Of a DNA stretch of 64,000 bases, positions 4,123 through 63,180 are shown one piece after another. The first letter of the stretch is position 1; each line of letters opens with the position of its first letter. Source of the DNA: Candidatus Saccharimonadia bacterium (GTDB taxonomy: Bacteria > Patescibacteriota > SICC01); assembly GCA_025449535.1 (NCBI GenBank), contig JANWJF010000001.1, forward strand, positions 303,344-367,343, written 5' to 3'. A program made the translations under genes and the position numbers. Below the pieces are notes generated by a model. That model was not told where the DNA came from. It made no database searches and saw nothing but the letters and a program-made list of their open reading frames with translations.

Positions 4123-4923
4123 TCATGCGCGTTTCTTGACTACCCGGTTTGCACCATTCTTTCCCACGACCCACGGGATCTCGATGGCTCGCATGCGTCC
4201 TTGTATGGGGTCGTAATAGGGAACGGACTGTTGGACGCCCATCGACAGCCCGCACCATTTGTACTCGCGGCATAGCCGCTGGACGGCTTTCCGGTTAATA
4301 ACGAGCCGGATGACGTGATGGTTGCCAGCTGGCAATGCAGGCAACTCGACAACCTTTCGCTTTTTCTTGGGGTTGCCGACGAGCCTGCCGCCTTCGCGAG
4401 CACCCAGGGTGAGGTCGAACTCATTCTTGATCGTGGTCCGGCCTTCATAACTGACGATCGCCACGAATTGCTTCTTCGTCCTCACGATCCTGGTCTGGAG
4501 ATTATTCACTGAGCCAAGAGTCGACAGCGGGAAACTGAGGCGACCGACCTCATCCTGTGTAGTGGGACCAGACGCTATGGCCACCATGGTGAATGTGTAG
4601 TCTTCATCGGTTGGCCCTAGATCAGCCACCCAGCGACTCATGCCTCCTGGCGGCCCCTGTTCGACAGGGGTAACGCTTCGGATGACGAGAGACGGACCGG
4701 TAAACCCACCGTATTCCGCCACGGGTTCCGTGAGGTCAAAATATTGCGCCTCCGACACAACCCTGAATTCGAGTGACTTCGGCAGTGTTGTCGGCTGGCT
4801 GACGTCCGTCACCAGACAGATCTTGCCGTCTTCCGAGCACTGTTCGGCCTGGGCCGTACCTGCGAGCGCGATGCTGAGGACGAGCCCCAGCAGCGCGATG
4901 GTCTTGAATCGCTTGCTGCTCAT
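4123..4923 (-). CDS. Secreted hypothetical protein (266 aa) with a signal peptide (MSSKRFKTIALLGLVLSIALAGTAQA).
   Basis: ORF 4123..4986 trimmed to the ATG at 4923, which is preceded by a strong SD (AAAGGAGG). Classical signal peptide. Confidence 0.6.
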   Translation of the reverse strand: MSSKRFKTIALLGLVLSIALAGTAQAEQCSEDGKICLVTDVSQPTTLPKSLEFRVVSEAQYFDLTEPVAEYGGFTGPSLVIRSVTPVEQGPPGGMSRWVADLGPTDEDYTFTMVAIASGPTTQDEVGRLSFPLSTLGSVNNLQTRIVRTKKQFVAIVSYEGRTTIKNEFDLTLGAREGGRLVGNPKKKRKVVELPALPAGNHHVIRLVINRKAVQRLCREYKWCGLSMGVQQSVPYYDPIQGRMRAIEIPWVVGKNGANRVVKKRA

Positions 4924-5203
4924 TTGAGGCCTCCTTTCATCACGAAAGCAGACGGTAGTGCCTGTTTCCTTAGCCTCCTCACACACCCGAACACTCGGGG
5001 TCGCGAGGAGGCCAAGGATATCGCGTGCCTGTTTGTGAAACTGCGGGAACGGGGATTCAGTATATAAAAATCCCGGCCTGTTTTCGCCGGGATATCCCCT
5101 GTCCTCGTTGTAGCCGCACCATATCGCTACTTTTTACCTTTGTCAAGGTGTTTTTAGTCAAAATAGGAACGGTTTTCCACGTATGCGTTGCTAGAATAAC
5201 CCT

Positions 5204-5449: not shown

Positions 5450-6115
5450 CTACTTCTCGACGGTATTCCCCTCAGGCGGAACCGGGTTCGCCTTGAGGAT
5501 CCGGGCGACGTGCACGAGGTTGTGCGCGGTCCACTTGGCCGTACGCACGGTGTACGGATGCTGCTCCCCGCCGGCCTTAATGAAGCTGTCGCCCGGTCCG
5601 GCCGGACCGACCCAATACGTGTCGACGTTCGGTGGCACGGTGAAGCCGAGGTGGCCGAGGTTGTACAGCGTAGTCCCACAGGCGTCGTGCGCGCCGTCCT
5701 CGTTGCCGGTCACCGCCACGCCGGCGACCTTGTTGTACATCGGGAACTGCCCCACGTCGTTCGTCTCCATATACACGCCGTCAAGCCGCTCGATCACCCG
5801 CTGGGCGATGCTCCCGCGCACGCCGAACCAGATCGGCGTACCGAGCACGAAGATGTCCGCCGCCTTGATCTTGTCGAGTAGCTTCGGCCACTCGTCTTGC
5901 TTACCATTGACCTTTCCTTCATCGGAGGTCACGCCCGGCGGCACGTGGTAATCGACCACGCGGACCGTCTCGTGCGTCACGTCGAGGCCGTCGAAGTGCT
6001 TCGCGACCATCTTGAGCAGCGCCTCGGTGTTGGACGTCTCGGGAGACGCCTTGAGCGTGCAGTTGAAGAGGACGGCGGAAAGCTTAGGACTGTTTTCGAC
6101 GGGTCGCTTGGACAT
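5450..6115 (-). CDS. NAD(P)H-dependent FMN reductase / flavodoxin-like fold protein (222 aa).
   Basis: Motif KIKAADIFVLGTPIWFGVRGSIAQRVIERL is typical of the FMN_red/WrbA family. Start moved to the ATG at 6115 (MSKRP...) because the ORF-track N-terminal extension overlaps the tRNA-Pro gene. Confidence 0.65.
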   Translation of the reverse strand: MSKRPVENSPKLSAVLFNCTLKASPETSNTEALLKMVAKHFDGLDVTHETVRVVDYHVPPGVTSDEGKVNGKQDEWPKLLDKIKAADIFVLGTPIWFGVRGSIAQRVIERLDGVYMETNDVGQFPMYNKVAGVAVTGNEDGAHDACGTTLYNLGHLGFTVPPNVDTYWVGPAGPGDSFIKAGGEQHPYTVRTAKWTAHNLVHVARILKANPVPPEGNTVEK

Positions 6116-6165
6116 CGGATACAGCATACTACTAGCCGGGAGCGACAACCTATAAGCTATAGGTA

Positions 6166-6242
6166 CGGGGCGTGGCGCAGTCTGGCAGCGCGTACGGCTG
6201 GGGGCCGTGAGGTCGCCGGTTCGAATCCGGCCGCCCCGACCA
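6166..6242 (+). tRNA. tRNA-Pro (anticodon GGG), CCA encoded.
   Basis: Cloverleaf folded by hand. Acceptor CGGGGCG/CGCCCCG, D-stem GCGC/GCGC, anticodon stem TACGG/CCGTG with loop CTGGGGG (U33, G37), T-arm GCCGG-TTCGAAT-CCGGC, discriminator A then CCA. Confidence 0.85.
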
Positions 6243-6439
6243 AGTTTGCTAGCTCGGTTGACATGTTTTTTATTAGAGGCATAATGTGACTCACGTTCGG
6301 GTGTCCAGGGGCCTGGGTTCCACGGCATGAGGGAGAGTTACCGGAACCTGGGAGTGACAACCGAGCAAGCAGCGGACGATCGTCAGGGTTACACGTCGTC
6401 CGTCACCATCCGCTCCGTCCAATACCAATAGACTACCGT

Positions 6440-6584
6440 ACACCGACACAACGGCGGTCTTAGAAAAACGGGGGGAAATAGCGGAGCGGTAACACAGGGT
6501 CCGGAGCGGCGAGCTGATAAGGGAAACAAGGACCACCTCCCCTTCAGCCAACGCCCCCGGACCCGACTTCTTTGCACTACAAAA
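6440..6584 (+). ncRNA. Candidate structured ncRNA in a 340-nt ORF-free gap. It carries an SRP-RNA domain-IV-like string (CAGGGUCCGGAGCGGCGAGCUGAUAAGGGAAAC versus the E. coli/B. subtilis CAGGUCCGGAAGGAAGCAGC...AAGUGAAAC). Boundaries are uncertain.
   Basis: No credible ORF between 6243 and 6751. A strong intrinsic terminator lies immediately downstream. The motif resemblance to 4.5S/scRNA helix 8 is only partial (apical loop GGAG rather than GGAA). Confidence 0.2.
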
Positions 6585-6615
6585 CCGCGCGCTTCGGATG
6601 AAGCACGCGGTTTTT
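6585..6615 (+). terminator. Rho-independent terminator (CCGCGCGCTTC-GGAT-GAAGCACGCGG followed by TTTTT).
   Basis: GC-rich stem of 11 bp with one mismatch, followed by a 5-U tract, on the plus strand after the tRNA-Pro/ncRNA region. Confidence 0.7.
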
Positions 6616-6751
6616 CCTTGCGTCCGGAACCGGTATTGAAAACCTGGTGATAGCCAGGTGGGTGCCCGCAGTCGTAATCGCCACGGCGACCGACAATCTG
6701 AGGCTCCCGTTAACGAAATGAAGGTTCAATACGCGGCCGGACGCCCCGATA

Positions 6752-7429
6752 TTACACCAAGCCCGCTGGAAAGGCTTTGACGAAATAACCGAAGACGCCG
6801 ATGACCGGATCCAGTATCGTACCGAGGATGCGGGAGTCGAAGACGATCGCGGTCAGGAAGACGGCGATCAGGATGACCGGCCCGACCCGCAGATACTCCT
6901 GATAGGCATGCTGGAACCGGTGCGGCACCAGGATACCGATCGCCTTCGAGCCGTCCAGCGGCGGGATCGGCAGCAGGTTGAAGGCGGCCAGCAGGATGTT
7001 GATATCCGTCACGATGGTCGTGAACTGGAGCCAGGTCTGGTTGACCGCGGTGACGTCGCCGCCGGTGAGGTCGATGATCCGGAGCGGCAGCGCGAAGATG
7101 AACGCCACGACCAGATTGGTGACGATGCCGGCGATCGAGACGTAGAAGTCGCCAAGCTTGCCGTCGCGGAGGTTGGCCGGATTCACCGGGACCGGCTTGC
7201 CCCAGCCGATACCGGCGAAGAGGAACAGTAACGAGCCCGCCGGGTCGAGGTGCGCCTTGGGGTTCAGCGAGACGCGACCGAACATCCGGGCGGTCTGGTC
7301 GCCCTGCCGGGCCGCGACCCAGGCGTGGGCGAACTCATGGACGGTCAGTGCGATTACGATCGCGATCAGCACGAACACCGCCTGGAGCGGGCTGGCCGTG
7401 AAGTAATCGAGGATGAAGATTCCGGTCAC
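6752..7429 (-). CDS. Site-2 protease family zinc metalloprotease (peptidase M50).
   Basis: HEFAHA zinc motif in a transmembrane helix and the NLLPIPPLDG motif. Polytopic membrane protein. Confidence 0.8.
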   Translation of the reverse strand: MTGIFILDYFTASPLQAVFVLIAIVIALTVHEFAHAWVAARQGDQTARMFGRVSLNPKAHLDPAGSLLFLFAGIGWGKPVPVNPANLRDGKLGDFYVSIAGIVTNLVVAFIFALPLRIIDLTGGDVTAVNQTWLQFTTIVTDINILLAAFNLLPIPPLDGSKAIGILVPHRFQHAYQEYLRVGPVILIAVFLTAIVFDSRILGTILDPVIGVFGYFVKAFPAGLV

Positions 7430-7476
7430 GGCCTTTAGTGTACCTGGCGCCTGCGGTCACGCTATACTGGTGCGGT

Positions 7477-7806
7477 ATGTCATCCACGAGAAAGAACGCC
7501 CATCCCAAGAACAACCGGCGCAGCCGCAAGGCCAAGGCGCTGGCGAAGCTCGGTGTCGTCGAGAAGCGGCCGACCTCCGGTCATAACGTCTCGCATGCGC
7601 TGAACCGGACCAAGCGCCTCTTCCGACCGAACCTCCAGAAGACGAAGGTGCTCGTCGACGGCAAGCTGGTCAGCCTGAAGCTGGACGCGAAGACGATCCG
7701 CACCCTGACCAAGCAGCAGAAGGAGCGCACGCCGGTGAAGCCGAAAAAGCGCGCTCCCAAGTGGAACAAGAAAGCGGCCCCGAAAGCTGCTGCTGCCAAG
7801 AAGTAG
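7477..7806 (+). CDS. rpmB: 50S ribosomal protein L28 with basic N- and C-terminal extensions.
   Basis: RPTSGHNVSHALNRTKRLFRPNLQKTKVLVDGK matches the L28 core ([21 protein letters not shown]). Start set at the ATG at 7477. The ORF track begins at the GTG at 7438. Confidence 0.8.
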   Translation: MSSTRKNAHPKNNRRSRKAKALAKLGVVEKRPTSGHNVSHALNRTKRLFRPNLQKTKVLVDGKLVSLKLDAKTIRTLTKQQKERTPVKPKKRAPKWNKKAAPKAAAAKK

Positions 7807-7815
7807 CCGGGTCGT

Positions 7816-8466
7816 TTACTTGCGCGTCAGTTCCTCGTCGGGACGTTCCAGATAGTTCGGCGTACCGGCGGCGTCTTCCGTCCAGACGCGGCCAGCCAGG
7901 TCGTCCTCCTTGGAAAACCGTCCCGGCGTCCCCTTCAACCAGTTCCAGAGGTCCTTCGCCGCAGACGAGACGCTCTTGGTCTCGGTGAACGTCGGCTGGT
8001 GGTCGGCCGGCATGAACATGCCGTTGTCCTGCGGTTCGGGGGCCGGCAGTTCCTCGGGCGCGTTTTCGATCGCCTTGGTGGAGGACTCGCCCGCGATGCC
8101 CGCGGACCCCAGACGCCCACGCAGCTCCTCGAGTCGCTCCGAGACGTGCTCGGCGTCCGCCATCAGCCGATCGTACGTCACCTCGGCGATGAACCCGAGG
8201 TCGCGCGCGACCAGCAGCGAGTACTTCGTCTCTTCCAGCGTCGTGATCGCCTCCGTGATCCGGCTCGAGAACTCGGCCTCGTCCTTGCGGGCGTGTCCGG
8301 CCACGATGCTCGAGGCGACGCCGACGGCCCGCTTGCGCAGGTCCAGTCCCAGCGCCTGCCGCTCGTCCTGCGGAAGCTGGCTGGCCACCTTGTAGACGTC
8401 CAGCGTCAGCCGGTGGGCCAGCTTCCAGGTCTCGACGGCGAATTGGGTGGTCGACGGTTCGGACAT
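7816..8466 (-). CDS. Four-helix-bundle protein (23S rRNA intervening-sequence protein family) with an acidic C-terminal extension.
   Basis: WKLAHRLTLDVYKVASQLP...LRKRAVGVASSIVAGHARKDEAEFSSRITEAITTLEETKYSLLVARDLGFI matches the family. Start trimmed to the ATG at 8466. Confidence 0.6.
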   Translation of the reverse strand: MSEPSTTQFAVETWKLAHRLTLDVYKVASQLPQDERQALGLDLRKRAVGVASSIVAGHARKDEAEFSSRITEAITTLEETKYSLLVARDLGFIAEVTYDRLMADAEHVSERLEELRGRLGSAGIAGESSTKAIENAPEELPAPEPQDNGMFMPADHQPTFTETKSVSSAAKDLWNWLKGTPGRFSKEDDLAGRVWTEDAAGTPNYLERPDEELTRK

Positions 8467-8526
8467 CTGTCCCCGATTGTACATGAGATTCCTACAATCG
8501 AGCACGTTCGGGCCATACACGGGCAA

Positions 8527-16741: not shown

Positions 16742-16800
16742 AGCGCTGTATTGTCTCGGTCAAACCAGTGAGTGTCAACGAAAAAGAGCGAGGGGCGCGG

Positions 16801-19915: not shown

Positions 19916-20012
19916 GCGTGTGTGTTTACGGGTGGTTGCTGCAAAATTAGACAACCATAACATTATCGGGCCCAAATGTCAATGCTCTCGCGTGCGGTAC
20001 AATGGGTCCAAT

Positions 20013-36053: not shown

Positions 36054-36142
36054 GTGTGGAAAATTGCCTTAATATAGCAAAAAATGAACCCTCTGTCAAG
36101 CCCCCAGACGCCCGGGGCGTCTCGTATTGGTATCCTGGTCCC

Positions 36143-62986: not shown

Positions 62987-63180
62987 GTGACGGCGCTCCT
63001 GTTAAGTGATGCCATGGTACCCCATCAGGCCTTTCGTGTCAATGAAGGAGTTTATCCGAATAGAACATTTTTCCGCTAACCCCATGCAAGAAGGAAGCCA
63101 GATGACTTCCCGTAATCGTCATACGTTTGACAACCGGAGTAGAAGCCCATATTAAGTAAGCAGCCGGAACATCTCAAAAA

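Follow-up and report, generated by a model that had tools for sequence, protein, structure and literature searches.

Organization of the locus

The window considered here is the whole stretch of DNA that was analysed, 64,000 nt (64 kb) in length, and the region of interest within it lies between a tRNA-Pro(GGG) gene, whose CCA end is encoded (6240–6242), and the gene of an M50 site-2 protease, whose protein sequence has exact matches in GCA_036560925.1, a MAG of Patescibacteria (CPR), and in an independently made Logan assembly. The approximately 500 nt that follow the tRNA were originally described as devoid of any credible ORF, and this description holds: the 509 nt from 6243 to 6751 contain no called or credible gene. 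What had been overlooked is that the right-hand part of this "ORF-free" stretch, approximately 140 nt, is occupied on the other strand by a 6S RNA gene. The stretch is a composite, formed by a strain-specific insert (6243–6611) and a minus-strand 6S RNA (6613–6751). The genes and features that define the locus are the following:

5450–6115, minus strand: FMN reductase, left of tRNA-Pro
6166–6242, plus strand: tRNA-Pro(GGG) (ARAGORN; Rfam tRNA, 57.6 bits), left border of the variable slot
6243–6611, no strand assigned: strain-specific insert between tRNA-Pro and the 6S gene, made up of a non-coding body and its own terminator stem
6613–6751, minus strand: predicted 6S RNA (ssrS) of a short form (approximately 140 nt), which begins directly after the M50 stop codon
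6752–7429, minus strand: M50 site-2 protease, right of the ORF-free stretch, with its stop codon at 6752
7438–7806, plus strand: ribosomal protein L28, right of M50

The G+C content of the window is 62% and that of the insert is 56%. Another stretch of low G+C (0.48 versus 0.62 for the window) is found at 5000–5200, and it includes, on the minus strand at 5118–5146, a 10/12 promoter match situated approximately 190 nt upstream of a 266-aa ORF (4123–4923, minus strand) that has no match in Pfam or PADLOC; a long leader, or a small feature of another kind, might be present here.

On the other side of the locus, the minus strand at 7816–8526 encodes a 236-aa four-helix-bundle protein of the TIGR02436/23S rRNA IVP family, with a long C-terminal extension. 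It is bAvd-like in one relative (L007), and its synteny with L28 and M50 is kept in all relatives. Owing to this gene, a DGR template RNA was considered, and it was rejected: neither a reverse transcriptase nor a DGR repeat was seen near 7816–8526, and a search of the 64-kb window with adenines as wildcards was negative, the best 40-mers having at least 7 mismatches at 24–30 non-A positions.

The neighbouring 6S RNA

The part of the window from approximately 6612 to 6750 is common to all relatives. On the minus strand, 6613–6751 matches the Rfam 6S model (RF00013, model positions 32–155) with 23.3 bits, below the gathering score of 46.4, so that standard annotation misses it; the copies of the relatives do not reach E ≤ 1 against Rfam in a 69-kb search. 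The reason why Rfam misses this gene is that its apical stem is truncated.

The structure of this RNA was derived from nine sequences of the lineage, for which RNAalifold gives a consensus of 42 pairs, with 96.5% of the cells paired. In this fold, a closing stem leads to a central bubble with a 17-nt 5′ side; the apical stem is short, and the 3′ side of the bubble bears a hairpin. Five of the pairs are changed on both sides, a number that is reached in 6 of 500 shuffles, while slid controls give 0–2.

A second line of evidence comes from primary sequence. The signature GACUGCGGNCACCCACCUGG is common to 6613–6751 and to 6S RNAs that pass the Rfam threshold, and a scan of genome collections with the invariant 20-mer CCAGGTGGGTGNCCGCAGTC retrieved 18 loci. 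In four Firmicutes MAGs (L012, L014, L022 and L028) the 20-nt motif falls within 6S RNAs that pass the Rfam threshold (54–68 bits) and are on the strand opposite to the motif. A covariance model built from the 6S sequences of the lineage (R1) gives 146.9 bits at 6613–6751 (minus strand) in the window. It also matches Rfam-verified 6S RNAs end to end (L014, 32.2 bits, E = 2e-5; L028, 26.8 bits, E = 4e-4; L022, 24.3 bits, E = 2e-3) and Parcubacteria/Paceibacteria loci (L026, 38.7 bits; L015, 30.7; L027, 28.0), part of each score being there by construction, since all the loci tested were selected by the motif. No match to R1 was obtained in six motif-bearing loci that are not 6S.

The 6S architecture, the covariation, the signature common to Rfam-verified 6S RNAs and the sub-threshold Rfam match together identify 6613–6751, as far as sequence can tell, as a short 6S RNA that is conserved across the lineage. 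Like the members of the ssrS family, it has the closing stem, the large central bubble, the apical stem, the hairpin 3′ of the bubble and GACUGCGGNCACCCACCUGG; unlike them, it measures only approximately 140 nt and its apical stem is much shortened. A similar short form occurs in Parcubacteria/Paceibacteria MAGs (L015, L021, L026 and L027), and the same 6S layout is found in loci of Parcubacteria, Paceibacteria and Saccharibacteria, two of the relatives with a neighbouring 6S RNA being labelled Candidatus Saccharibacteria. A metagenome scan with a 6S pattern specific to the lineage re-found the L007 type only. The literature search returned nothing linking 6S RNA with Saccharibacteria, and the only text in which 6S RNA and Patescibacteria are mentioned together is a mitochondrial SRP study, where each term appears once.

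Two observations concern the surroundings of this gene. The interval between M50 and 6S is also variable, forming a second slot in which L003 and L009 have an extra gene. In both of them a second copy of the last 13–38 nt of the M50 coding region is located immediately upstream of 6S (6496–6533 and 4641–4678 in L003; approximately 2964–2976 and 2011–2053 in L009), the M50 coding-end bases being at 6750–6789 in the window, where TAATAT overlaps the M50 stop codon. This duplication suggests that the bases in question may carry a promoter or processing signal of the 6S RNA. In addition, a 13-nt direct repeat of the 3′ acceptor strand of tRNA-Pro (6227–6239 and 6737–6749, 12/13 identical) brackets the insert and the 6S gene. 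Its interpretation as an att-site duplication was set aside as probably wrong, given that the repeat is at about chance level, lies inside the 5′ closing stem of 6S and is missing in the L004 group.

A bidirectional terminator between the insert and the 6S gene

The insert and the 6S gene meet at an intrinsic terminator:

6581–6616, both strands: intrinsic terminator (inverted repeat I4; arms 6581–6595 and 6600–6614)

In the original prediction this element was a textbook terminator with an 11-bp GC stem followed by five uridines. The strong hairpin and the U5 are borne out; the stem is not exactly as described, because its core has 10 Watson–Crick pairs (two of them U–A) and one C·A mismatch, with a GGAU loop. 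The predicted energy is −21.6 kcal/mol (z = −5.6) for the plus strand and reaches −25.6 kcal/mol for the minus strand, the z-scores of the two ranging from about −5.6 to −5.8. The presence of an A-run upstream and a T-run downstream, together with the greater strength on the minus strand, makes this a bidirectional terminator. A simple terminator scan does not flag 6581–6616, probably because of the C·A mismatch.

An evident terminator is found at this place in eight of the nine aligned relatives, with stem sequences that differ from one another, and none is evident in L007. Judging from this arrangement, the element is predicted to close two units, one on the plus strand (tRNA-Pro and the insert RNA) and one on the minus strand (M50 and 6S), and its conserved role would be that of ending the convergent tRNA-Pro and M50–6S transcripts.

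A hypervariable slot

The syntenic loci of the relatives were fetched by means of the M50 protease and the FMN reductase, and the comparison covers the syntenic site. There, no similarity to 6243–6611 was found in L003, L004/L005, L007, L009, L016, L023 or L030 (blastn with 7-nt words; tblastn). These relatives have a flanking protease that is 64–97% identical, and the tRNA-Pro is 95–100% identical in L003, L004, L007, L016 and L023. From 6612 on, towards the right, the closest relative, L030 (protease 97% identical), hardly differs from the window, and its homology ends exactly at the T-run of the terminator; the approximately 90 nt available to the left of the junction are unrelated to the insert (alignment score of 19 versus a shuffle mean of 17.8).

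What the slot contains in the relatives varies widely:

L004/L005 and L016: about 20–36 nt between tRNA-Pro and terminator, no cargo gene
L023: 66-aa membrane ORF
L007, L031 and L032: 98-aa membrane ORF, on the other strand
L009: 242-aa ORF
L003: several genes (RNHCP, DUF2268 and others)

According to Pfam and PADLOC, the cargo proteins do not resemble those of defence or mobility; the genes are accessory ones of various kinds, and neither an integrase nor a transposase occurs among them. The absence of the insert in the relatives and the presence there of other cargo indicate that the body of the insert is one variant of a hypervariable slot and not a conserved RNA gene. The comparison points to a 369-nt block, 6243–6611, that was placed between the tRNA and the T-run in this strain and would have been acquired recently. 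An insert that arrived recently and that the closest relative lacks might be a short-lived remnant with no function, a possibility that is weighed below with the folding data.

The only other copy of the insert that was found is identical and belongs to a Logan contig (L002), which spans the whole insert, the junction on the 6S side and the last approximately 29 nt of the tRNA. That an independent assembly contains the same sequence argues against an assembly artefact. No second copy is present within the 64-kb window, no blastn match was obtained in phage or plasmid collections, a 20-mer of the segment gave 0 matches in JGI metagenomes, and two of the three insert k-mers scanned against IMG/VR had no match. 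The third, an 18-mer, matched 34 low-GC prophages and was rejected as a chance match within one phage family, since the similarity runs for just 19–22 nt. The identity of 18–19 nt between 6419–6437 and these prophages is coincidental. As regards the prophages themselves (L033–L066, 34 related low-GC IMG/VR contigs), they have ACCAATACCAATAGACTACCAGAGACTAC in common, apparently in a local repeat region of the AGACTAC type.

Promoter and predicted transcript

The left part of the insert contains an element that, combined with the terminator, delimits a putative transcription unit:

6258–6285, plus strand: sigma-70-type promoter (TTGACA, 16-nt spacer, CATAAT; 11/12 match)
6292–6616, plus strand: predicted orphan non-coding transcript of approximately 325 nt, bracketed by promoter and terminator

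The resemblance of this promoter to the consensus exceeds chance: sites matching at least 11 of 12 positions number 3 in the 64 kb, versus 0.02 expected from Markov shuffles, and those matching at least 10 of 12 number 8, versus 0.93 expected. All eight strong sites have a perfect TTGACA; the spacer of the insert promoter is 16 nt long and that of the other seven is 17 nt. Several of the other strong sites (for instance 63014, 36071 and 16750) end 9–28 nt upstream of ORF starts on the same strand, and sites of this kind thus appear to be working promoters in this genome. From the position of the promoter and the terminator it is inferred that transcription would start near 6292 and stop at 6616, yielding an RNA of approximately 325 nt. 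There is no terminator between tRNA-Pro and the insert, so the insert sequence is predicted to be made also as a 3′ trailer of the tRNA.

The distances mentioned above are of interest in their own right. The near-consensus sites at 63014–63042, 36071–36099, 16750–16778 and 19954–19982 (all on the minus strand) end 9–28 nt upstream of the start codons of the longest ORFs, which hints at very short 5′ UTRs, or leaderless transcripts, in this CPR genome.

Coding potential of the insert

Between tRNA-Pro and M50 (6243–6751), the longest minus-strand ORFs reach 86 and 62 aa, and the longest plus-strand ORF has 34 aa; with a GC3 of 0.54–0.71, none of them has the codon signature of the genome. In the insert, GC3 is 0.54–0.63 in all phases, versus 0.85–0.89 in the flanking genes (GC2 is about 0.4 in the genes of this genome), and no codon periodicity was detected in the insert. 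A search of 5.8 billion proteins with the concatenated six-frame translation retrieved no homolog at E ≤ 1, and tblastn found no similarity between the insert and the cargo genes of the relatives.

With these data in hand, the possibility can be considered that the promoter drives an mRNA for the 34-aa ORF at 6327–6431 (MRESYRNLGVTTEQAADDRQGYTSSVTIRSVQYQ), with a 3′ UTR that is long and structured. This is the sole plus-strand ORF with an ATG downstream of the promoter, its GC3 (0.71) is the highest in the segment, and the relatives have small ORFs in the same slot. However, a GC3 of 0.71 over 35 codons is still under the values of the genes, the ATG is not preceded by a purine run resembling a Shine–Dalgarno sequence, the ORF has no homolog and it spans just a third of the transcript, all of which makes a small-protein gene quite improbable.

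Folding of the insert

The predicted transcript has a minimum free energy of −135 kcal/mol, with a z-score of −4.6 against dinucleotide shuffles (−4.2 for the minus strand). Measured against GC-matched native windows of the genome, the excess of foldability is 1.8 SD, with equal stability in 4 of the 192; overall folding is only moderately beyond chance. The minimum-energy structure of the plus-strand insert is a string of separate hairpins, with no rod with a central bubble. Besides the terminator, two hairpins were characterized:

6295–6366, plus strand: 5′ hairpin whose 10-bp core (CCUGGGUUCC/GGAACCUGGG) is perfectly paired and whose loop contains the ATG of the 34-aa ORF
6497–6564, plus strand: long imperfect hairpin of 68 nt (inverted repeat I2; −38.1 kcal/mol, z = −5.6)

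The significant folds of the insert are the 68-nt hairpin and the terminator; the 5′ hairpin, with a z-score of only −1.6, is not significant. The 3′ arm of the latter could pair with the region of the −35 hexamer instead of 6295–6306 (inverted repeat I1, 6247–6263 and 6355–6371), a pairing that would be available solely in transcripts reading through from the tRNA. Furthermore, CCGCUCCG has two possible CGGAGCGG partners, the three elements being located at 6410–6417, 6482–6489 and 6502–6509.

The moderate excess of folding is one of the observations that would be expected if the insert were a functionless remnant of a former cargo cassette, with a relic promoter, a noise transcript and incidental hairpins, in a slot that turns over by recombination. 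The unrelated content of the slot in every lineage, the absence of the insert from the closest relative and a G+C content lower than that of the genome are consistent with the same explanation. Against it, a near-perfect promoter and a strong terminator around an ORF-free stretch would be surprising in decayed DNA, neither remains of a coding frame nor homology to proteins were detected, and small CPR genomes are gene-dense and quick to purge junk. Such a remnant is a serious possibility, if one on the doubtful side.

Comparison with SRP RNA and other RNA families

The original prediction was based on a string that resembles the 5′ side of helix 8 (domain IV) of the bacterial SRP RNA (ffs; RF00169, RF01854), the helix that binds Ffh, and it considered that the segment might be a divergent SRP RNA, a 6S-like RNA or a novel sRNA. 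The string is indeed present, at 6495–6527. The resemblance is a short one (CAGG.UCCGGA...AAG.GAAAC), with no model behind it, and the evidence gathered since does not sustain the SRP assignment. At the gathering score, the matches to Rfam in the 64 kb are just two tRNAs, with no SRP family. At E ≤ 10, the 701 nt from 6100 to 6800 contain no SRP RNA (RF00169 or RF01854), RNase P RNA or tmRNA on either strand, and on the plus strand the only matches are the tRNA and one that covers nothing but the terminator, so that the proposed check against the SRP, 6S, tmRNA and RNase P models gives no plus-strand match for any of them.

The structural context of the string is also different from that of helix 8. 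The apical GGAG is not a GNRA tetraloop, and the residues that flank it, C and C, are unable to close the loop. The partner of GUCCGG in the minimum-energy structure is CCGGAC (6556–6561), about 55 nt downstream, so the whole string becomes the 5′ arm of the 68-nt hairpin. The only Rfam matches at 6497–6564 are miRNA-hairpin models, on the minus strand and below threshold; these, like a sub-threshold match to sraL on the same strand, were dismissed as a generic hairpin or terminator shape. Lastly, relatives whose protease is 64–97% identical lack the segment at the syntenic site, which is incompatible with an essential RNA. The insert lacks a model match, a GNRA loop and conservation, it adopts another fold, and it is not a member of the SRP RNA family; the probability that the string is a genuine helix 8 is vanishingly small. 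It had been stated beforehand that the absence of an Rfam match and of conservation in relatives would refute the SRP proposal, and both were observed.

As for a 6S-like RNA, the proposal was mistaken for the insert and for the plus strand: the 6S RNA of this locus is on the minus strand, at 6613–6751, and has the terminator in common with the insert. It can still be asked whether the plus strand carries some other housekeeping RNA, be it a divergent second 6S-like RNA or one such as RNase P RNA or tmRNA, considering that some bacteria have two 6S RNAs and that the segment is rich in hairpins. The Rfam searches at E ≤ 10 speak against this, as do the lack of a tmRNA according to ARAGORN, the lack of a match to R1 in the insert, the lack of the rod with a central bubble and the lack of conservation in the relatives, which leave this idea highly improbable. 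Even when they are added together, SRP RNA, a second 6S RNA and other housekeeping RNAs account, at most, for a very small share of the probability.

The insert as a candidate orphan RNA

Of the initial proposals, the one that has gained ground is that of a novel sRNA, which is now the leading reading, with one correction: the sRNA was thought to be co-transcribed with tRNA-Pro, and the insert has its own putative promoter, so co-transcription with the tRNA is not the only source of the RNA that is predicted. The argument for an orphan non-coding RNA of approximately 325 nt, transcribed independently, is formed by the 11/12 promoter, the strong terminator with its U5, the absence of coding signal and of homologs, and the structure z-score of −4.6; on these grounds we give this reading about an even chance. 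The insert is an orphan of a single genome.

According to this reading, a strain-specific non-coding block would have been acquired recently between tRNA-Pro(GGG) and 6S in a GC-rich CPR genome. RNA polymerase would start near 6292 from the block's own promoter and halt at 6616, and the product would be a hairpin-rich RNA of about 325 nt; transcription of tRNA-Pro would yield the same sequence as a 3′ trailer. If functional, this RNA might act as a trans-acting regulatory RNA or as a sponge specific to this strain.

Two types of known systems can be compared with the orphan RNA that is proposed. The insert resembles the strain-specific sRNA genes of bacteria in that it has its own sigma-70 promoter, a Rho-independent terminator, no ORF, an abundance of hairpins and a presence limited to one lineage; it differs from them in that it is a predicted RNA and that its length, approximately 325 nt, exceeds that of most trans-acting sRNAs. 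To our knowledge, essentially no sRNAs have been characterized in CPR bacteria. The other type is the tRNA 3′ external transcribed spacer, exemplified by 3′ETS-leuZ of E. coli, which works as an sRNA sponge. The insert is likewise located directly downstream of a tRNA, with no terminator between them, whereas its own strong promoter and its far greater length set it apart, and the relatives of this genome terminate directly after the tRNA.

A more ambitious version of the proposal is that the insert is a functional, structured regulatory RNA of approximately 325 nt in a single CPR strain, and that the interval between tRNA-Pro and 6S is a dedicated recombination hotspot for the swapping of cassettes. 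We regard it as unlikely. If it were true, small cargo cassettes (RNA genes or small membrane proteins) would enter the slot, each bringing its own terminator stem, and the junction of the cassette would lie exactly at the T-run of the 6S terminator.

Significance

If the main reading is right, little changes: one strain-specific sRNA candidate is added, and a false SRP lead is removed. The interval between tRNA-Pro and 6S offers a convenient marker for the turnover of cargo at the level of strains. The more useful and practical by-product is the shortened 6S RNA that standard annotation misses, since pipelines will report ssrS as lacking in the CPR genomes that carry this form, as in this Saccharibacteria-like lineage and in the Parcubacteria/Paceibacteria MAGs.
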